A stretch of 64,000 nucleotides of DNA from Escherichia coli (lineage in GTDB: Bacteria > Pseudomonadota > Gammaproteobacteria > Enterobacterales > Enterobacteriaceae): the NCBI RefSeq assembly GCF_003790525.1, contig NZ_CP033635.1; one strand, 5' to 3'. Both the position numbers and the translations under genes were made by a program. The notes under the pieces were generated by a model. That model did not search any database. It had not been told where the DNA came from and saw nothing but the letters and a program-made list of their open reading frames with translations. Of this stretch, positions 1 to 60,643 are shown one piece after another; within the stretch, counting starts at the first letter, position 1; the number at the start of each line of letters is the position of its first letter.

Positions 1-175
<175 letters not shown>

Positions 176-8326: not shown

Positions 8327-8402
8327 TGGTGCCGATAATAGGAGTCGAACCTACGACCTTCGCATTACGAATGCGCTGCTCTACCAACTGAGCTATATCG
8401 GC
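8327..8402 (-). tRNA. thrW: tRNA-Thr (anticodon CGU)
   Basis: 76-nt minus-strand sequence GCCGATATAGCTCAGTTGGTAGAGCAGCGCATTCGTAATGCGAAGGTCGTAGGTTCGACTCCTATTATCGGCACCA folds as a cloverleaf with anticodon loop TTCGTAA and CCA end. Confidence 0.9.
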
Positions 8403-26693: not shown

Positions 26694-26725
26694 TGATGAC
26701 TCCGGATAACGATGTCAGGTTATTG

Positions 26726-26740
26726 GCAAAAGGCGTGCCA
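26726..26740 (-). promoter_or_regulatory. Sigma-54 (-24/-12) promoter upstream of lafB
   Basis: Minus strand reads TTGGCACgccttTTGCC, i.e. GG-N10-GC matching TGGCAC-N5-TTGC; predicted start ~20 nt upstream of the lafB ATG, with GGAG RBS in between. Confidence 0.5.
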
Positions 26741-26828
26741 ATAATTTTTATGTGAATAATCAATAAATTGAAAAAGGGGCGGAAATGGTGTTTCCGGTCT
26801 GGCGGAAAAAAGCCTGCCGCTGAAAGCA

Positions 26829-26854: not shown

Positions 26855-26856
26855 CG

Positions 26857-26890
26857 TAGCCGGATAAGGCGTTTACGCCGCATCCGGCAA
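26857..26890. repeat. REP (repetitive extragenic palindrome) element
   Basis: GTAGCCGGATAAGGCGTTTACGCCGCATCCGGCAAG matches the REP palindromic unit. Confidence 0.6.
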
Positions 26891-32575: not shown

Positions 32576-32595
32576 GTTCCGTAAACCGGGTGCCA

Positions 32596-32920
<325 letters not shown>

Positions 32921-32935
32921 CCGAACGTCGGAGCC

Positions 32936-33235
32936 TCATTTATGCTTCGGCGACAACTGCTTCACAATCATCGCCGCAATCCCAATCCCGTGCTGCTGCG
33001 CCAGGGTGTTACACAACTCATCGTCATAAAACCCCTGCATCATGCGCACCGAATCGCTGTTAAACGGGTTATCTTTCGAATCAAACAACTCGTTGGTTTT
33101 ACGCATCTCTTTCAGCATGTTGCGTAAAAAAATCGCCTCAAACTGCTCCGCGGCCTGCTTAATATCATTGGCCTGAACCTTCGGCCCCATTAACGCATCG
33201 CTGCCATCAATCCCGCCGCTGGCGTTCACTTTCAT
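32936..33235 (-). CDS. lfgJ: Rod-binding protein (FlgJ N-terminal domain homolog)
   Basis: 99 aa with FlgJ rod-binding-like sequence; ATG overlaps the lfgI stop. Confidence 0.75.
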   Translation of the reverse strand: MKVNASGGIDGSDALMGPKVQANDIKQAAEQFEAIFLRNMLKEMRKTNELFDSKDNPFNSDSVRMMQGFYDDELCNTLAQQHGIGIAAMIVKQLSPKHK

Positions 33236-34335
33236 CAGATCACCTCCAGGTCGGCATCCAGCGCGCCCGCCTCATGCAGCGCCTGTAAAATCGACATAAT
33301 GTCGTCCGGCGTCGCGCCCAAACTGTTCAACGCATTGACCAGCGTTTTCAGGCTGCTCGACTCCGGCAAACTCACCACGCCCGGGCGCGCATGATTCACC
33401 GCGATATTGCTCTGCGGCGTTACCGCCGTGCGCCCGCCTGCAAAGGCATTCGGCTGGCTGACGTTGCTGGTTTCGTTAATCGAGACGGTCAAACTGCCGT
33501 GCGACACCGCCGCCGCATGCAGCGCAACGCCATCGCCCATCACCACCGTGCCGGTACGCGAGTTAAACACCACGCGGGCGCGGATTTTCTCTGCCTGCAC
33601 CTGTACATCATCCAGTTGCGACATAAATGCCACCCGCGCGCCGGGGCTGGTGGGCGCGCGCACGCTGACGTTGGTGGAGCTCTGCGCAGTAGCAATGCCG
33701 CCAAACGAGGCATTAATCGCCGCCGCAATATTGTTGGCATCTTTAAACGACGGACGTTTCAGGTTGAGGGTGATAGTGTCGCCCATCTGAAAATCGCTGG
33801 GGATCTCGCGCTCTACCGTTGCGCCGTTAGGAATTAACCCGGCGGTTGGCGTATTAACCGTTACGCTCGAACCGCTGGCCCCGGTGGCATTCATCCCGCC
33901 CACCACCACGCTGCCCTGCGCCAGGGCATACACTTCGCCATCCGCGCCGTGCAACTGGGTCAGCAACAAAGTGCCGCCACGAATACTTTTGGCATCGCCA
34001 ATCGACGAAACGGTGACATCAATGGTCTGCCCGCGCGAGTACATCGGCGGCAGCGTGGCGCTCACCGCCACCGCGGCGACGTTTTTCACCTTCGGGTCGA
34101 TTTTATTCGGCAGTTGCACGCCAAACTGGCGCAGCATATTGGTGATGGTCTGGTTGGTGAATTTGACCTGGTTTTTATCGCCCGTGCCGTCGAGGCCGAC
34201 CACCAGGCTGTAGCCGACCAGTTGGTTTTCACGCACGCCCTGTACGTTGACCAGCGATTCCAGCGATTGCGCCAGCGCCACGCCAGGTAGCGCCAGGCTC
34301 ACGGTGATTACTGCGGCCTTTATCCAGTTTTGCAT
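33235..34335 (-). CDS. lfgI: Flagellar P-ring protein (FlgI homolog)
   Basis: Signal peptide [22 protein letters not shown] then FlgI-like sequence; start at ATG 34335 with GGAGAG RBS. Confidence 0.9.
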
Positions 34336-34349
34336 TGCACTCTCCGGCA

Positions 34350-35014
34350 TTAAATCGGGAACAGAGGATGGTTAAACAGCCGCGTCAACCAGCCTGCGGC
34401 GTTGGCGTCGCTTAACGCGCCGCGTCCGGCATAGGAGATGCGGGCATCGGCGATCCGCTGGGAGGAAACCGAGTTGTCGTTCTGGATGTCGTCGGCGCGC
34501 ACCAGGCCGCTTAAGCGGATGTACTCATCGCCCTGGTTGAGGGTCAGCCATTTTTCGCCGCGAATTTCCAGGATGCCGTTAGGCTGCACCGCATGGACGG
34601 AAACGGTGATCTCCCCGCGCAGGCTGTTCTGCTGCTGGGAAGTGGCACTGCCGTCAAAGTCGCGGTTGGCGTCGATAGAGCCGGAAAGCTTATCTTTGGT
34701 GTGTCCAAAAATCGTTGGCGCGCCGATATCGACGGTGTTGCTTTTGCCGAAGTTGGTTTTCGCCTGTTTGCTCGACTGGGTGGATTCTTCGAGGATCACC
34801 GTCAGGATATCGCCCACGCGGTAAGCCCGCCGGTCGGCAGTTAGCGACCAGTTGTAGCCGGTTTCAAACACGCCCCCGGCACGCCCGTCTGCCGGAGGCG
34901 GCGCTTCGGTGGTTGGTGGCGCAAAGTATGCGTCGTCTTTTTTGACCAGAATGGCCTGCGATTCACACCCGCTAAGCAGGGGAAGCAGCGCCACCAGCCA
35001 GAGATAATTTTTCA
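34350..35014 (-). CDS. lfgH: Flagellar L-ring lipoprotein (FlgH homolog)
   Basis: Lipoprotein signal (LLPLLSGC) and FlgH-like body. Start placed at GTG 35014; the longer ORF-track start translates the upstream REP element. Confidence 0.8.
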
Positions 35015-35052
35015 CGTTCTGCCTGTTTAAATACAGTGAGTTATGTGCTCTT

Positions 35053-35090
35053 GTAGGTCGGATAAGACGTGTCAGCGTCGCATCCGACAT
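35053..35090. repeat. REP element
   Basis: GTAGGTCGGATAAGACGTGTCAGCGTCGCATCCGACAT. Confidence 0.5.
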
Positions 35091-35097
35091 TTCGGCC

Positions 35098-35883
35098 TTA
35101 CAGCGTCTGACTGATGTACTGCAACATATCGTCCGCAGCCGACACCATTTTGGCGTTCATCTCGTACGCCCGTTGCACCGTAATCATCGCCACCATCTCG
35201 TTGACGATATCCACGTTCGAGCCTTCGAGCGCGTTGTCCTGCAAGGTGCCAAGCCCATCTTCGCCCGGTACGCCTTCGGTCGGCTGACCGCTGGCAGCGG
35301 TTTCCAGATACAGGTTGTCGCCCTCGGCGGAAAGCCCCGCCGGGTTAGCGAAGTTCACCAGTGTCAGTTGCCCTAACTCGGTCACATCGCTGTCGCCGGG
35401 TAAGATCGCCGTCACCGTGCCGTCCTCACCAAACGCAACGTTAGTCGCCCCCGCCGGAACGTCGATTTCCGGTTGTAACGGCAAACCCTGCGAGTTAGTC
35501 AACACGCCGTCGGCGTTCACCTGCAAGTTGCCATCGCGGGTATAGGCGATATCGCCGTTAGCCTTTTGCACCTGCAAAAATCCCTGTCCCATAATGGCGA
35601 CATTCATGGCGTTGTCGGTGGTCTCAACGTTGCCTTCGGTGAAGGTTTTCTGGGTACCGACAATGCGTACGCCGCTCCCGAATTGCAGCCCGGTCGGCAT
35701 GATGTTGTTCTGGTCGAGCATCGCGCCCGGCGCTTCCTGGGTCTGGTAGAACAGATCCTGAAACATCACCCGATCGCGCTTGAAGCCGGTGGTGTTAACG
35801 TTGGCGATGTTGTTGGCAATCGCGCTCATTTCAGCATCCTGCGCCGAGAGGCCGGTTTTGCTGATCCATAGTGCTGCGTTCAT
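35098..35883 (-). CDS. lfgG: Flagellar distal rod protein (FlgG homolog)
   Basis: 261 aa; N-terminus MNAALWISKTGLSAQDAEMSAIANNIANVNTTGFKRDR and C-terminus ...ITVQRAYEMNAKMVSAADDMLQ are FlgG-like. Confidence 0.9.
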   Translation of the reverse strand: MNAALWISKTGLSAQDAEMSAIANNIANVNTTGFKRDRVMFQDLFYQTQEAPGAMLDQNNIMPTGLQFGSGVRIVGTQKTFTEGNVETTDNAMNVAIMGQGFLQVQKANGDIAYTRDGNLQVNADGVLTNSQGLPLQPEIDVPAGATNVAFGEDGTVTAILPGDSDVTELGQLTLVNFANPAGLSAEGDNLYLETAASGQPTEGVPGEDGLGTLQDNALEGSNVDIVNEMVAMITVQRAYEMNAKMVSAADDMLQYISQTL

Positions 35884-35915
35884 GGTGGTAAATTCCGTGT
35901 TATTTTTGGGCCGCA

Positions 35916-35952
35916 GTTGCCGGATGCGGCGTGAACGCCTTATCCGGCCTAC
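35916..35952. repeat. REP element
   Basis: GTTGCCGGATGCGGCGTGAACGCCTTATCCGGCCTAC. Confidence 0.6.
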
Positions 35953-35961
35953 GATGTGCGG

Positions 35962-36699
35962 TTACGAGCCGCGCAATAAGCGGTTGCCCGCGTCGCTGAT
36001 ATCTTCGGCTGTTTTCATCATCTTGATCTGCGCTTCAAACTGGCGGTTCATGGCGATGGACGACATCATTTCGCTCACCGCCGAGACGTTGCTGCCTTCG
36101 AGAAAACCGCCGCTGACTTTGATGTTTTCATCGCGCTGGGCCGGAATGCCGTCGCTAGTCACCAGCATCCCTTCAGGATTTTTCGCCAGGTTAGCGACCG
36201 GGATATCCACCAGCTTCAGGCGGTCGATATCCATCGTGGCGGTCACGTCGCCGTCATCAGGCGTCACCGACAGCGTGCCGTCGCTGCCAAACGAGGCAAT
36301 GGCGTTCGGCGGCAGAATGATCGGGCCGTTATCCCCCAGCACCAGATTGCCGTCGATGGTCAGTTGCCCCTGATCGTCCTGCTGAATGTTGCCGTTGCGG
36401 GTATAGACTTCGTTGCCGTTTTTATCCTGCACCGCAATGTAACCCGCGCCCTGAATCGCCACGTCCAGCGGGCGTTCGGTTTTCTCCGCCACACCCGTGC
36501 TGTCGTTCACGCCGCTGGCCCCTTCCTGCGCCATATAGCGAGTGTCGAAGCCGCCGCCTTTCACCTTGTCATTGGTCGCCATTGCCATATCGGCGCGAAA
36601 ACCGTTGGTGTTGACGTTCGCCAGGTTGTTGGCGCTAATCTGCTGCTCATACAACGTCTGAGAAGCCCCGCTCAGGGCGGTATAAATCAAGCGATCCAT
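35962..36699 (-). CDS. lfgF: Flagellar proximal rod protein (FlgF homolog)
   Basis: 245 aa with rod-family N-terminus (…ANNLANVNTNGFRAD) and C-terminus. Confidence 0.9.
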   Translation of the reverse strand: MDRLIYTALSGASQTLYEQQISANNLANVNTNGFRADMAMATNDKVKGGGFDTRYMAQEGASGVNDSTGVAEKTERPLDVAIQGAGYIAVQDKNGNEVYTRNGNIQQDDQGQLTIDGNLVLGDNGPIILPPNAIASFGSDGTLSVTPDDGDVTATMDIDRLKLVDIPVANLAKNPEGMLVTSDGIPAQRDENIKVSGGFLEGSNVSAVSEMMSSIAMNRQFEAQIKMMKTAEDISDAGNRLLRGS

Positions 36700-37901
36700 T
36701 ACATTGCCCGGAACAGCGCGTCATCGAGCTGCGTGCTGGTGGCGATCACTTTGGTGTTGGCCTGATAGTTACGCTGGGCGGTCATCAGGTTGACTAACTC
36801 GCTGGTGATATCGACGTTAGAGCTTTCGAGCACGCCCGACGACAGCGTGCCGCAGGAACCGGAGCCGGGAACGCCAATCAGCGGCGTGCCGGATTCCCCA
36901 GTTTGTACCCACGCGGTGCCGCTCACCGCTTCGAGTCCGTTTTCATTCGGGAAAGTCGCCAGCACCACCTGGCCCTGCAACATGCGCTCGCCGTTGCTGT
37001 AGGTAGCGTAAACTTTGCCATCGTCATCGACCTGCACACCGTTTTGCGTAGCGGAGGCGTAGCCGTTGGCGGCGTTGGTGGTGACCGAAAATTCAGAGCC
37101 GTATTGCGTACAGGTGGAGTAATCGACGGTTAAGTCGATGGGTGCGGCGGCGTCGGTCTGAAACTCAATGGTCTGCGGCGTGGTTGGCGAAGTCAGCTTC
37201 CCGGTGTTCGGGTCGAAGGTTAACGTCGTCGCCGGAACGCCGGTCTGCTGCTGACCGTCGAAGGTGTACTGCACTTCCCAGGTGTTGTCGCTGGTTTTGG
37301 TGAAGTACTGGCATACCGAGTGTTCGTTACCTAATGAGTCGTACACCGTGGTGGTGTAGCTGTCGGTATACGAGCTGCTGTTGGTCGCGTCGAACGGTAC
37401 GGTAGTGCGGTCGATAGCGTCGTCGCTGGCATCGAAGTTGGCGGTAAAGGTCAGGCTGCTGCTGGCCTGCGCCGGAATATTGCCAGTTTTGATCTGGATA
37501 TCGGTGACTGTACCGGTTTGCAGAGTGCCCGTGTCATCGACCGGATAGCCCTGCAAATAAGCGCCTGAGGCGTTGACGATATAGCCGTTTTTGTCGGTTT
37601 CAAACGATCCGGCGCGGGTATAAGAAATGTTGCCCGCGCTGTCGCAGGTAACAAAAAAACCGTCGTCGTTAATCGCCAGATCCAGCGCGTTACCGGTGGA
37701 TACCAGCGAACCGCCGCGCGAAATACTTTGCGCGGTGCCTGCCACGCTGACGCCCATCGCCTGACTTCCGGCATACATGGCTGAAAACTGGGTGGTCATC
37801 GACTTATAGCCTACCGTTCCGGCGTTGGCGATGTTGTTACTGATCCCGTCCAGCTGTTCGTTAACGGCATTCAGCCCCGTTGCGGCAATTTCATAACTCA
37901 T
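36699..37901 (-). CDS. lfgE: Flagellar hook protein (FlgE homolog)
   Basis: 400 aa with FlgE-like termini (N ...ISNNIANAGTVGYK; C ...LVNLMTAQRNYQANTKVI). Confidence 0.9.
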   Translation of the reverse strand: MSYEIAATGLNAVNEQLDGISNNIANAGTVGYKSMTTQFSAMYAGSQAMGVSVAGTAQSISRGGSLVSTGNALDLAINDDGFFVTCDSAGNISYTRAGSFETDKNGYIVNASGAYLQGYPVDDTGTLQTGTVTDIQIKTGNIPAQASSSLTFTANFDASDDAIDRTTVPFDATNSSSYTDSYTTTVYDSLGNEHSVCQYFTKTSDNTWEVQYTFDGQQQTGVPATTLTFDPNTGKLTSPTTPQTIEFQTDAAAPIDLTVDYSTCTQYGSEFSVTTNAANGYASATQNGVQVDDDGKVYATYSNGERMLQGQVVLATFPNENGLEAVSGTAWVQTGESGTPLIGVPGSGSCGTLSSGVLESSNVDITSELVNLMTAQRNYQANTKVIATSTQLDDALFRAM

Positions 37902-37923
37902 TGTTTCTTCCTGTTAATTGTTC

Positions 37924-38637
37924 TTACGCCACATCACTGTCGGCATCGGGTACGCCAAACTGGCTAATCATGGTGAACGGCACTTCACCTACACCGGCAA
38001 CGTTAAGTACCGGGGAGCTGCCGTCGAGCGGGATGCGCACATCTTCCACTTCGCCGGAGACTTCAATCGGCACCTCTTCTTCCCCGGTGTTGGTCACCAC
38101 CGAGACGTCGTAATCGCCCGGCGGGATACCGTAATCCGCGGGATTCACCGAGAAATCCACCTGGCCTGGCCCGACGGACGAACTCCCTTCCGGGATCAGC
38201 GACACCGTATAGTCATCGCCTGCGGCATCGGTAAAGTGGAGATCGGCGGTGGTACAGGCGTCGTCAAGCGTGGCGCGACCGTTAATGGTCTGGTCACTCA
38301 CCTGCAAGGCGGTGGTCTGCACCATAATGTCGTCGCCCACCAGGTTGCCGAGCGCCATCACCTGAATGTTGCTCATCAACACCGCGTTGGTATTCGCCTG
38401 CACGCTCATCTCTTCCATCATCGCCACCTGCGCCATTGACGAAAGCTGGTCGATATATTCGGTGGCGTCAGTCGGGTCGGTCGGGTCCTGGTTTTGGATC
38501 TCAGCGACAAACAGCGTCAGGAAGGTATCGACGGGCGAGCTATCGCTGCTGCTTGTCGTGTCGCTGGCCGCCACATTATTGCTTTCCGGCGTGGCGGTCG
38601 GCTGCGGTGATTGCGCATTCAGCGCCAGGGTATTCAT
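37924..38637 (-). CDS. lfgD: Hook-capping/assembly protein (FlgD homolog)
   Basis: 237 aa with FlgD-like N-terminal region (…DTFLTLFVAEIQNQDP…); position between flgC and flgE homologs. Confidence 0.85.
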   Translation of the reverse strand: MNTLALNAQSPQPTATPESNNVAASDTTSSSDSSPVDTFLTLFVAEIQNQDPTDPTDATEYIDQLSSMAQVAMMEEMSVQANTNAVLMSNIQVMALGNLVGDDIMVQTTALQVSDQTINGRATLDDACTTADLHFTDAAGDDYTVSLIPEGSSSVGPGQVDFSVNPADYGIPPGDYDVSVVTNTGEEEVPIEVSGEVEDVRIPLDGSSPVLNVAGVGEVPFTMISQFGVPDADSDVA

Positions 38638-39068
38638 CAGGCTTCTCCCAGTTTCAGCAGGCTTTGCTGCATACTTTTCACGTTGTTGAGCACATCGACG
38701 TTAGTTTCAAAATCGCGCGAGGCCGACATCATGTCCGCCATCTGTTCCACCACGTTGACGTCGGGATACCAGACATCCCCGTTAGCATCGGCGAGCGGCG
38801 AATGTGGTTCATAGCGTTTCACCGCCCCGCCGGTTTGCAGCACGTCCTGCACCTGCACACTGGCACCGTCAATGGCATGACGATGTGTACCCGCCAGCAA
38901 ACTGTGGTGATACACCGCCGCAAACACCGGGCTGCGCGCTTTATATGCCTGCGCCTCGCTGCTGGCGGGCGCATTAGCATTCGCCAGGTTACTGGCGACG
39001 GTATTCAGACGTAGCGTTTGCGCCGTCATCGCCGAGCCGGAAATCTGATAGATATCAGTAAATGACAT
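38637..39068 (-). CDS. lfgC: Flagellar proximal rod protein (FlgC homolog)
   Basis: 143-aa translation MSFTDIYQISGSAMTAQTLRLNTVASNLANANA... is FlgC-like. Confidence 0.9.
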   Translation of the reverse strand: MSFTDIYQISGSAMTAQTLRLNTVASNLANANAPASSEAQAYKARSPVFAAVYHHSLLAGTHRHAIDGASVQVQDVLQTGGAVKRYEPHSPLADANGDVWYPDVNVVEQMADMMSASRDFETNVDVLNNVKSMQQSLLKLGEA

Positions 39069-39070
39069 GC

Positions 39071-39406
39071 TTATTTCCCTTCAATGGCCTCTCTGATGCC
39101 GCTGATTTGCAGATTCAGAAAGGTCAGACTGCTTTGATAATCCATACTATTTTGTGAAAACCGCGCCTGCTCGCTGTTCAGCTCCACGGTGTTGCCATCT
39201 TCCGACGGCTGCATCGGCACGCGGTACTGGACATCCACCGCCGCGTTATTTGCCCGTTGCATCTCCCTGGCAAAATCAATATCTTTAGCCTTGAAATTTG
39301 GCGTATCGACGTTCGCCAGATTCGCAGTCAGTAGCTCGGTCCTCTCAAGACGTAACTTCACTGCCTGCGGATGCACTCCCAATGCCTGTTGAAAACTGAT
39401 CCCCAT
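39071..39406 (-). CDS. lfgB: Flagellar proximal rod protein (FlgB homolog)
   Basis: Start placed at ATG 39406 (MGISFQQALGVHPQAVKLRLERTELLTANLANVDTPNFKAKDIDF...), which aligns with the FlgB N-terminus and lies downstream of the predicted sigma-54 start site. Confidence 0.8.
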   Translation of the reverse strand: MGISFQQALGVHPQAVKLRLERTELLTANLANVDTPNFKAKDIDFAREMQRANNAAVDVQYRVPMQPSEDGNTVELNSEQARFSQNSMDYQSSLTFLNLQISGIREAIEGK

Positions 39407-39442
39407 TTCTTGCGTCACTCCCGCTTCAATCCGCATACGCTA

Positions 39443-39458
39443 AGCAATCGCTGTGCCA
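39443..39458 (-). promoter_or_regulatory. Sigma-54 (-24/-12) promoter of the lfgB operon
   Basis: Minus strand reads TTGGCACagcgaTTGCT, an exact fit to TGGCAC-N5-TTGC; predicted start ~26 nt upstream of the lfgB ATG. Confidence 0.55.
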
Positions 39459-39487
39459 ATTTTTAAGTGACTGATGAGAAAGGGTTT

Positions 39488-40225
39488 ATGAGTTTTCAAT
39501 TTTGCAGGCGGAAGTTTTATTTCCTCCTGGCGCTGGCCTTACCGGGCTACGCCGCCGTCCATCCCGTGCAACATAGCGCGCGGGAACAAATCAACGCCCA
39601 GGTACTGAATACCGCGAGCCAAAAAATTGAATCGCTGGCGCAGCAGCGGCAATGGCATGACTATCGCTACACCTTTAAGGTCTATATTCCGTCGCAGATT
39701 GCGACCGCCGCGCCCTGTACAACGTCACCCGGCGTCACGCTGACGTCGCCTGCGGAAATCGCCCTTAACCGGATGAACTTCACCGTCAGTTGCCCGCAAA
39801 GCTGGCAGATGAACGTCGCGGTGCGCCCGGATGTTCTGGTACCGGTGGTGATGGCAAAGTCACTGGTTGCCCGCGATACGCCGCTCACGGCAAATGATGT
39901 GGAGCTGAAGCCCTACAACGTCAGCGCCCAGCGTCGCGATGTGTTGATGGAGCTCGATGACGCAATTGGTTTAAGCAGTAAGCACGCGTTGCAACCGGGC
40001 AGACCAATCACCAAAGAAGAGCTGGTTTCGCCAGTGCTGGTCGAACGCGATCAGCCGGTGATGATTGTTTACCAGAGCGCGGGGATCACCGCCTCGATGC
40101 CCGGCGTGGCGCTGAAAAATGGTCGCAAAGGGGAAATGGTGAAAGTACGTAACGTCAGCAGCCAGCGGGTCATTAGCGCGAGGGTGGCGGAAAGCGGCGT
40201 GGTGACAACGGTAAGCGCGGAGTAA
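39488..40225 (+). CDS. lfgA: Flagellar P-ring assembly chaperone (FlgA homolog)
   Basis: Translation from MSFQFCRRKFYFLLALALPGYAAVHP... has a signal peptide and a FlgA-like C-terminal domain; divergent from lfgB. Confidence 0.8.
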   Translation: MSFQFCRRKFYFLLALALPGYAAVHPVQHSAREQINAQVLNTASQKIESLAQQRQWHDYRYTFKVYIPSQIATAAPCTTSPGVTLTSPAEIALNRMNFTVSCPQSWQMNVAVRPDVLVPVVMAKSLVARDTPLTANDVELKPYNVSAQRRDVLMELDDAIGLSSKHALQPGRPITKEELVSPVLVERDQPVMIVYQSAGITASMPGVALKNGRKGEMVKVRNVSSQRVISARVAESGVVTTVSAE

Positions 40226-40239
40226 TTTGCGCAGGCGAT

Positions 40240-40267
40240 TAAAGTTTTGCCGCCTGTTAACCGCTTT
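40240..40267 (+). promoter_or_regulatory. Candidate sigma-28-type promoter upstream of lfgM
   Basis: TAAAGTTT (exact sigma-28 -35 consensus) then N12 then ACCGCTTT, about 40 nt upstream of lfgM; the -10 half matches the lfgK candidate, not the classical GCCGATAA. Confidence 0.3.
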
Positions 40268-40304
40268 ACCGGAGTAACCCACCCAATACCGAGACGAGGT
40301 TACG

Positions 40305-41024: not shown

Positions 41025-41151
41025 CGACAATTCCTTCCCCCATCGCGGAAACGGATTTTCCGCCTGATTCTCAATCCCTTGTTTTTGATTACAAAAATTC
41101 CCGGCACGCTTATTGCACATTCCGCAAAGTAATAAAGACTGGAAGCCACCT

Positions 41152-52267: not shown

Positions 52268-53254
52268 TCAGGAGAAAACTTCGATACCGTGCTTGCGCAT
52301 GGAGGCCAGTCGATAGCGCAGTGCGCGCGGGGTAATGCCTAACAGGTCAGCGATTTTGCTGCGGTTGCCCTGATATTTACGCATCAGGTCGGCGATATAT
52401 TGATACTGCGCGCTTCGTCCGTGCTGGCCTAAATCGCCGGTTTCGGCAATGTGGACGGCGGGCTGAACAGGCCATTGCAGTTCACTGTGGTCAGCAATAT
52501 CGGTGTCCGGCAGGCCTAATGCATCCGGGTAAATTACGCCGTCGCGATTTAAAATCATTCCCCGCTGAATGGCGTTTTCCAGTTGGCGAACGTTACCGGG
52601 CCAACGGTAATTGAGCAGCGCACGGCGGGTGGATTCGGACAGGGTGATATTTTTCACCAGCACCGTGGAGTATTTTTTAATAAATGACTCTGCCAGCGGA
52701 ATAATATCGTTCAGACGTTCACGCAGCGGCGGCATGGTAATAGGAATCACCGCCAGACGATAATAGAGATCTTCACGAAAACGTCCGGCGGCAACTTCCT
52801 GCTCCAGGTTTTTATTGGTGCAGGCAATCAGGCGAAAATTGAGTTTGATTTGTCGGTTGCTGCCTAATCGCTCAACCTGTTGTTCCTGCAACACGCGTAA
52901 TATTTTGGCCTGTAGCGCCAGCGGCATTTCACCAATTTCATCGAGCAATAAGGAGCCGTTATTTGCCAGTTCCATTTTTCCTGGCACGCTGGCAATTGCG
53001 CCGGTAAATGCGCCTTTGTCGTAGCCAAATAACGTCGATTCCAGCATATTTTCCGGGATCGCCGCGCAGTTCACGCCGATATAGGGCGCATTATCATTTT
53101 CACCAAAGGCTACGGTGTGAATATATTTCGCCACGCACTCTTTCCCCGCGCCGGTTTCGCCCTGAATGAGCACCGGCACGTTAAAGGCGGCGACACGCTT
53201 TGCCAGAGTAAAAGCGTTAATGCTGGAAGCGGCAGTTGCAATAAGTTCAGACAT
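52268..53254 (-). CDS. lafK: Sigma-54-dependent transcriptional activator of lateral flagella (AAA+ domain plus C-terminal HTH, no N-terminal receiver domain)
   Basis: 328 aa; Walker A GETGAGKE at residues ~30-40, GAFTGA sigma-54 contact motif, C-terminal Fis-type HTH (SKIADLLGITPRALRYRLAS). No coding potential upstream for a receiver domain. Confidence 0.9.
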   Translation of the reverse strand: MSELIATAASSINAFTLAKRVAAFNVPVLIQGETGAGKECVAKYIHTVAFGENDNAPYIGVNCAAIPENMLESTLFGYDKGAFTGAIASVPGKMELANNGSLLLDEIGEMPLALQAKILRVLQEQQVERLGSNRQIKLNFRLIACTNKNLEQEVAAGRFREDLYYRLAVIPITMPPLRERLNDIIPLAESFIKKYSTVLVKNITLSESTRRALLNYRWPGNVRQLENAIQRGMILNRDGVIYPDALGLPDTDIADHSELQWPVQPAVHIAETGDLGQHGRSAQYQYIADLMRKYQGNRSKIADLLGITPRALRYRLASMRKHGIEVFS

Positions 53255-60560: not shown

Positions 60561-60643
60561 GTAGGCATGATAAGACGCGCCAGCGTCGCATCAGGCATCG
60601 GTGCACAATTGCCGAATCCGGCGTGAACGCCCTCTCCGTCCTA
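60561..60643. repeat. BIME (two REP palindromes) between rayT and yafL
   Basis: GTAGGCATGATAAGACGCGCCAGCGTCGCATCAGGC ... GCCGAATCCGGCGTGAACGCCCTCTCCGTCCTAC. Confidence 0.6.

Follow-up and report, generated by a model that had tools for sequence, protein, structure and literature searches.

A predicted sigma-54 promoter of the lfgB rod/hook operon and an accompanying inverted repeat in the Escherichia coli Flag-2 locus

Background

Sigma-54 control of the class 2 operons of lateral flagella is textbook knowledge for Vibrio. In V. parahaemolyticus, RpoN bound the promoter of flgB2 (VPA0264) in EMSA, and deletion of rpoN was followed by a fall in flgB2C2D2, lafK, lafA and lafBCD transcripts (PMC9817140). 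Class 2 lateral genes of this species are activated by LafK, which acts with sigma-54 (PMC4481668; PMC3930126). Several lateral flagellar clusters of Aeromonas hydrophila are, however, LafK-independent (PMC4481668), so that the Vibrio hierarchy is not automatically transferable to E. coli.

Here we analyse a stretch of 64,000 nucleotides of E. coli DNA (the window), which according to its annotated neighbourhood contains a complete Flag-2 (lateral-type) flagellar locus. Flag-2 was reportedly defined by Ren et al. in 2005 in E. coli strain 042. In some strains the system is regarded as cryptic or inactive, strain 042 carrying a frameshift in lfgC (PMC4578781). The same report mentions, in one sentence, consensus sigma-54 sites found in silico 5´ of lfgB and lafB in E. 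coli PCN033 (PMC4578781). Locus, gene pair and TGGCAC-N5-TTGC motif are the same as here, and a scan of our window gives exactly these two exact sites. Because the sites are already in print, the lfgB promoter is already known as an in silico observation. The portion of that report dealing with these sites offers neither an analysis of conservation nor a prediction of the transcript start, and it has no argument on the start codon, no third promoter and no enhancer. In the literature searched, we found no transcript-start mapping, no RpoN or LafK ChIP and no reporter data for E. coli Flag-2 promoters, and promoters are not discussed in two large comparative papers on Flag-2.

The lateral operon of V. 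parahaemolyticus that starts with flgB_L is orthologous to the lfgB operon, is likewise divergent from flgA_L-flgM-flgN and is preceded by a -24/-12 site, ATGGCACGTATCTTGT, in which the -12 element is TTGT, compared with TTGC in E. coli. The same arrangement (flgAMN divergent from flgBCDEFGHIJ) and the same place in the assembly hierarchy are found in Flag-1 of Salmonella and E. coli. There, however, class 2 promoters depend on FlhD4C2 and sigma-70, and lfgB would differ in both sigma factor and activator. Among well-described sigma-54 promoters, glnAp2 (NtrC), nifH (NifA and IHF) and pspA (PspF and IHF) are alike in having a -24/-12 core, an inverted repeat about 70-90 bp upstream and possibly intervening IHF. 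The lfgB region differs from them in the sequence of the repeat, in that its candidate enhancer falls within the divergent gene's coding sequence, and in an intergenic region of only 81 bp.

Results

Layout of the locus

The locus begins with lafU...lafA, lafZ and lafW, continues with lfgL...lfgB on the strand opposite to lfgA-lfgM-lfgN, and then passes through a variable block with a glycosyltransferase and lfiJ...lfiE-lafK to lfiM...lfhA. This matches the lateral-type cluster order that includes lafK, lfhAB-lfiRQPNM-lafK-lfiEFGHIJ...lfgNMA/lfgBCDEFGHIJKL-laf. The 1.5 kb around the site studied here are 100% identical to E. coli SMS-3-5 and recur in 1279 of the 5426 complete genomes of E. coli. 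Rfam has two matches beyond the flagellar locus: the isrC sRNA, truncated by the edge of the window (1..90), and a tRNA gene (8330..8402).

An earlier note on this DNA had assigned a near-consensus sigma-54 promoter to the lfgB operon, with the control of lateral class 2 operons in Vibrio as background. Both the FlgB models and the annotated Flag-2 neighbourhood confirm the gene call. The organism being E. coli, the Vibrio hierarchy serves as an analogy and not as direct evidence.

The -24/-12 element upstream of lfgB

At 39443-39458, where the promoter had been placed, the minus strand reads aaaaaTTGGCACAGCGATTGCTTagcg, and together with its surroundings cacttaaaaaTTGGCACAGCGATTGCTTagcgtATGcggattgaagcGGGAGtgacgcaagaaATGgggatcagt.

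39444..39458, minus strand: core of the predicted sigma-54 promoter, TGGCAC-AGCGA-TTGC (sequence, and conservation in 80/80 related loci)

The TGGCAC-N5-TTGC motif described in the earlier note is indeed present on the minus strand at 39458..39444. Exactly 10 nt lie between its -24 GG (39457-39456) and its -12 GC (39445-39444). The place was right, although the 17-mer quoted for it spans 39459..39443 and so goes one base beyond the interval given. The distance of 26 nt claimed between motif and ATG has to be corrected to 36 nt (last motif base 39443 to ATG 39406); about 26 nt is instead the length of the predicted 5´ UTR (39432 to 39407). The site, TGGCACAGCGATTGCT, agrees with the extended consensus TGGCACG-N4-TTGCW at 11 of 12 specified positions. 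The sole mismatch is the A that follows TGGCAC where the consensus, like other E. coli lineages, has G. The motif is oriented toward lfgB, its -12 C lying at a distance of 38 nt from the ATG of this gene.

The 64 kb contain two exact TGGCAC-N5-TTGC sites, against 0.27 expected from shuffled sequences. Each is on the correct strand just 5´ of a Flag-2 operon, one at lfgB and the other at lafB. When intergenic, gene-directed GG-N10-GC sites with at least 8/10 matches are counted in the cluster, there are only three: those of lfgB and lafB (10/10 each) and a CGGCAC-N5-TTGC site. The Rfam scan gave no RNA family at the lfgB promoter site.

Start codon, leader and extent of the operon

Standard geometry of sigma-54 promoters places the transcript start about 12 nt 3´ of the -12 GC. 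The features that follow from this geometry and from the comparison of gene starts are:

39071..39406, minus strand: lfgB, FlgB-type proximal rod protein, 111 aa (PGAP, homologues, family models)
39406..39404, minus strand: true lfgB start ATG (homologue N-termini, PGAP, NF009328)
39431..39433, minus strand: predicted transcription start, ~39432 (~12 nt past the -12 C)
39407..39432, minus strand: predicted 5´ UTR, ~26 nt (predicted start and sequence)
39434..39436, minus strand: upstream in-frame ATG, rejected as start (5´ of the predicted transcript start; not conserved outside Escherichia)
32936..39406, minus strand: probable transcription unit lfgBCDEFGHIJ (tight packing, largest gap 82 bp)

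The earlier note had preferred the downstream of two possible starts, arguing that an in-frame ATG 30 nt further upstream would leave no 5´ UTR. Such an ATG exists at 39436; it comes 6 nt behind the motif and precedes the predicted transcript start by about 4 nt. The argument holds, since the predicted start at ~39432 falls past this codon. The downstream start is also supported in other ways. Homologues from 17 genera always have the N-terminus M-[GSA]-I-S-F, which corresponds to 39406; PGAP begins the gene at 39406; NCBIfam FlgB model NF009328 aligns with its positions 1-116 of 116 to residues 1-111; and in other genera the upstream ATG is absent or lies behind stops. We therefore rejected ATG 39436. 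The product matches TIGR01396 FlgB with 105 bits (cut-off 59). GTG at 39418 was rejected too; it would give 115 aa, like most homologues, but the 4-5 extra residues of these are an internal indel and not an N-terminal extension.

The leader contains a Shine-Dalgarno sequence at 39422..39418, which reads GGGAG here but AGGAG in Citrobacter and most E. coli. Its spacing of 11 nt from the ATG is rather long, which counts against the proposed promoter and leader.

Downstream of lfgJ comes a 420-bp gap filled with REP/naRNA4 elements, and then lfgK. Two naRNA4 copies (Rfam RF02564) fill this gap (32652..32846), a third copy lies beyond lfhA (60564..60641), and a REP-like palindrome is found in the lafA-lafB gap (26855..26885). 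As terminators or mRNA stabilisers, these REP-type elements may divide up the long flagellar transcripts. Another sequence, TGGCACCCGGTTTAC, at 32581..32595, 66 nt 5´ of lfgK, has a good -24 box with AC instead of the -12 GC, and no inverted repeat was found upstream of it. This may be a site that has degenerated, or the match may be due to chance.

Conservation among species and lineages

We compared 80 loci from different species, each with a relative of LfgB and taken with flanks of 3 kb. A -24/-12 site is located 45-97 nt 5´ of the lfgB start in all 80. Exact TGGCAY-N5-TTGC occurs no more than 130 nt 5´ of lfgB in 74 of them, and the remaining six have a weaker GG-N10-GC site with at least 8/10 matches. 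Elsewhere in the same loci, exact TGGCAY-N5-TTGC was found only 9 times in 1.01 Mb of strand-bases. An information profile was built from 48 non-redundant loci (less than 75% mutual identity) anchored on the motif. It is close to zero everywhere except at TGGCAYG, TTGCT, the arms of the repeat described below, an A-tract and a block adjoining the -24 box.

The spacer changes while the boxes stay. Among E. coli lineages the N5 is AGCGA, GGCGA or GGTAA and the boxes are invariant; across genera, spacer and flanks drift and both boxes are fixed. Because the boxes are kept while the spacer varies, the conservation points to a functional site and not to recent common descent. Judged from these alignments, the lfgB site is far beyond chance and is under selection across species.

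These data bear on two alternatives. Firstly, the motif could be a chance match to the consensus, with lfgB transcribed from some other promoter and translated from ATG 39436. Two of 100 shuffles did reach two matches, and the open reading frame does extend to 39436. Yet the site recurs in 80/80 species, a scan of 39250-39650 gave no sigma-70-like promoter or hexamers on either strand, the upstream ATG is not a usable start in other genera, and homologues and the family model begin at MGISF. We consider the probability of a chance match negligible, and the conservation data effectively refute it.

Secondly, the promoter could be intact but silent, Flag-2 being a cryptic relic whose site owes its conservation only to the youth or recent transfer of the cluster. 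In accord with this, about 76% of the complete genomes of E. coli lack Flag-2, the prototype strain 042 has it in an inactivated form, and the literature searched yielded no expression data. On the other hand, the boxes are invariant and the spacers change both within E. coli and across the 48 non-redundant loci; such selective conservation of boxes is not expected of neutral decay. Moreover, no pseudogenes of the Flag-2 cluster are flagged in the SMS-3-5 annotation. We regard a silent relic as very unlikely.

An inverted repeat shared by three promoters

By comparing the 300 nt 5´ of the three sigma-54-type promoters we found an inverted repeat, CGGAAA-N5-TTTCCG, at each of them.

39509..39525, unstranded: repeat at lfgB, CGGAAG-TTTTA-TTTCCT = CGGAAGTTTTATTTCCT, 10/12 to CGGAAA-N5-TTTCCG; lfgA codons 8-13 (R-K-F-Y-F-L)
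26726..26796, minus strand: lafB module (predicted promoter and perfect dyad)
26740..26726, minus strand: predicted lafB promoter, TGGCACGCCTTTTGC, 33 nt 5´ of the lafB (fliD-like) ATG 26693
26780..26796, non-coding: perfect dyad at lafB, CGGAAATGGTGTTTCCG, exact repeat
41046..41116, plus strand: lafV-like module (predicted promoter and perfect dyad)
41102..41116, plus strand: predicted lafV-like promoter, CGGCACGCTTATTGC, CGGCAC-N5-TTGC, 36 nt 5´ of ATG 41152
41046..41062, non-coding: perfect dyad at the lafV-like gene, CGGAAACGGATTTTCCG, exact repeat

Exact copies occur twice in the window, against 0.03 expected, and solely at the lafB and lafV-like promoters. Both begin 56 nt 5´ of the T of (T/C)GGCAC. 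The lfgB copy begins 67 nt 5´ of the -24 box, one helical turn further, so it is centred at about -85 from the predicted transcript start, compared with about -74 at the two sister promoters, where transcripts would be predicted to begin near 26714 (lafB) and 41128 (lafV-like gene). In Citrobacter and Pseudocitrobacter the lafV-like module is kept with perfect arms and a freely varying spacer. The lafV-like gene itself, located after lfgN and followed by a glycosyltransferase gene, encodes 309 aa, whose likeness to the flagellin lysine-N-methylase FliB is weak (E 5.7e-10, under the cut-off). At lafB, a further partial copy of the repeat at 26803..26819 makes up three half-sites about 11 bp apart.

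In 61 of the 80 loci the best repeat match lies at offset -70..-67. The offset is -77 or -78 in Tatumella and Rosenbergiella, and it grows to -123 or -124 in three further cases, namely Pseudomonas flexibilis, Serpens and a Lysobacteraceae MAG. Repeat sites with at least 10/12 matches have a background frequency of 1.7e-4 per position, and most of the strong "background" copies belong to the lafV-like module of the third promoter. In a related Vibrio lateral locus (flgA-M-N divergent from flgBCDE), TGGCACGCATCTTGT is accompanied by CGGAAGTTCCTCTTCCT at -57, in non-coding DNA. A different Vibrio sp. locus (L085) was discarded as a comparison, as its flgB lies in another, AT-rich context without a -24/-12 site.

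The position of the lfgB copy inside lfgA raises the question of what is conserved there. Part of the conservation could be at the protein level, which counts against an enhancer. The peptide encoded by the repeat in enterobacterial LfgA is R/G-K-x-x-F-R/P/L, preceded in many lineages by exactly 7 codons before RK; calls of the lfgA start codon are ambiguous. We rejected conservation solely as LfgA coding sequence, because identical repeats are non-coding at lafB and the lafV-like gene and the Vibrio copy is non-coding as well. In some genera GGAA is kept although the encoded arginine has become glycine, and Vibrio LfgA, in our own translation of the locus sequence, has no RKxxFR peptide. Both observations argue for constraint on the DNA. 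It looks as if the enterobacterial repeat has been absorbed into the lfgA frame, the DNA element dictating a peptide in the LfgA signal sequence.

Some copies of the repeat have no promoter at their side. A one-mismatch copy, CGGAACGTCGATTTCCG, lies inside lfgG at 35455..35471, with no sigma-54-type site nearby. Strong copies (11-12/12) are also found about 860-985 nt 5´ of lfgB, near the lfgA 3´ end or the lfgM start, in many other genera (loci L027, L031, L032, L039, L040, L042, L047-L051, L054, L065-L067). The E. coli window has no counterpart of these distal copies, and no -24/-12 site with at least 8/10 matches was found within 170 nt of them.

Between the promoter and lfgA

39464..39476, minus strand: putative IHF-consensus-like element, CATCAGTCACTTA, 8/9 to WATCARNNNNTTR, abutting the -24 box
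39488..40225, plus strand: lfgA, P-ring chaperone, divergent; ATG 30 bp from the -24 box

The conserved block adjoining the -24 box resembles an IHF site. A match to WATCARNNNNTTR is present in 36 of the 48 non-redundant loci (8 expected), with offset -19 or -18 in 29 of the 36; in some genera the block overlaps the start region of lfgA. Judging from this recurrence, binding of IHF here is possible.

With its ATG 30 bp from the -24 box, lfgA must have a leader that crosses the lfgB promoter, and the candidate enhancer sits in the first 40 nt of its coding sequence. No recognisable lfgA promoter of sigma-70, sigma-54 or sigma-28 type was found. On the plus strand 5´ of 39488 there is no sigma-54-like site, the only match nearby (39653-39667, 8/10) lying inside lfgA. 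A strict sigma-28 scan (TAAA-N14-16-GCCGATAA, CCG core) gave no matches 5´ of Flag-2 genes. By eye, a perfect sigma-28 -35-type box, TAAAGTTT, with a poor -10, aaCCGcttTA, can be seen 5´ of lfgM (40236..40275). Located between lfgA and lfgM, these elements could serve lfgMN as a class 3 promoter, lfgM encoding the anti-sigma-28 factor.

LafK

52268..53254, minus strand: lafK, sigma-54 activator, 328 aa (AAA+ residues 6-172, lid, Fis-type HTH 284-317)

The domains of LafK are Sigma54_activat (E 1.3e-63), AAA_lid_14 and HTH_8. In a domain search and in the window's open reading frames we found neither a receiver or other regulatory domain at the N-terminus nor an extension of the frame in the upstream direction. 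The layout is PspF-like, NF008622 aligning over 7-326 of 329. The LafK of Vibrio, in contrast to this 328-aa protein, is longer and has an N-terminal domain. We propose that LafK, having no regulatory domain, would be active as soon as it is made. The domain layout suggests control through lafK expression or through a partner protein. Plesiomonas lacks lafK. RpoN, the sigma factor itself, is encoded by a core E. coli gene outside the window.

Discussion

At the sequence level, the lfgB site has the features expected of a sigma-54 promoter: spacing, agreement with 11/12 consensus positions, orientation, distance to the gene, conservation and LafK in the cluster. These same properties support the promoter reading of the earlier note. 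We put at roughly 0.87 the probability that this site serves the rod/hook operon of E. coli Flag-2, lfgBCDEFGHIJ and perhaps genes beyond it, as a promoter dependent on sigma-54 (RpoN). Dependence of this operon on LafK and RpoN is likely.

Since LafK is a DNA-binding activator, an enhancer is implied, though the lfgA-lfgB intergenic region has only 81 bp. No described LafK binding site was found in the literature searched. The repeat is most probably the element to which LafK would bind. We incline slightly to a wider reading, in which CGGAAA-N5-TTTCCG is the enhancer used by LafK in lateral (Flag-2 type) flagellar systems generally and is new to the literature. As part of this wider reading, the repeat would be conserved from Vibrio to Enterobacterales, occurring also 5´ of flgB in Pseudomonas flexibilis and Serpens, and its offsets of about 56, 67-69 and 77 nt 5´ of the -24 box would be helically phased.

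The promoter might, however, be genuine and served by an activator other than LafK, for which the dozen or so chromosomal enhancer-binding proteins of E. coli are candidates, or LafK might act from solution without the repeat. LafK does lack the N-terminal regulatory domain, the lfgB copy of the repeat matches at only 10/12 positions, and some sigma-54 activators, such as FlgR of Helicobacter, work without DNA binding. Against this, lafK lies inside the cluster with its HTH_8 intact, and the repeat accompanies all three sigma-54-type promoters, exact copies occurring nowhere else in the window. To our knowledge the repeat is also unlike the sites of NtrC, NifA, GlrR and FhlA, which weighs against another activator. 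We hold either variant of this alternative to be unlikely.

A possible model of lfgB activation by LafK is as follows. RNA polymerase with sigma-54 would bind the -24 GG and -12 GC (39458..39444) as a closed complex. To open it, an AAA+ activator would be needed, a role for which LafK, itself a product of the cluster, is the best candidate. LafK would bind the repeat about 85 bp upstream, in the first codons of divergent lfgA, and loop to the polymerase, perhaps aided by the IHF-like site adjoining the -24 box. The transcript would then begin near 39432, with a 26-nt leader carrying the Shine-Dalgarno sequence, would be translated from ATG 39406 and would encode lfgBCDEFGHIJ.

We suggest that the same module of promoter and repeat drives two further units. 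One of them is the lafB unit, with filament cap genes and the downstream sigma-28 gene lafS, as in the Vibrio scheme; the other is the lafV-like flagellin-modification gene. Together, lfgB, lafB and the lafV-like gene would make up a "class 2" regulon of LafK comparable to that of V. parahaemolyticus lateral flagella. Bound LafK and the sigma-54 closed complex, the latter sitting on the lfgA leader, could also gate the divergent lfgA-lfgM-lfgN, thereby coupling class 2 activation to the supply of anti-sigma factor.

Conclusions

In itself, the lfgB site is conceptually ordinary; the E. coli site is in print and will hardly surprise a specialist. What we add are the evidence for selection across species, the resolution of the start codon, a third promoter of the same type and the shared repeat. 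The last of these is apparently undescribed and represents a modest new lead. If it is the LafK enhancer, then it would define the LafK regulon by sequence, the lafV-like gene and the glycosyltransferase gene downstream of it being predicted members. The copy within lfgA would be a clean example of a regulatory element that constrains the coding sequence of a neighbour gene. About a quarter of complete E. coli genomes carry Flag-2, and the predicted promoter, the start codon and the candidate enhancer offer handles on its expression and its regulon.
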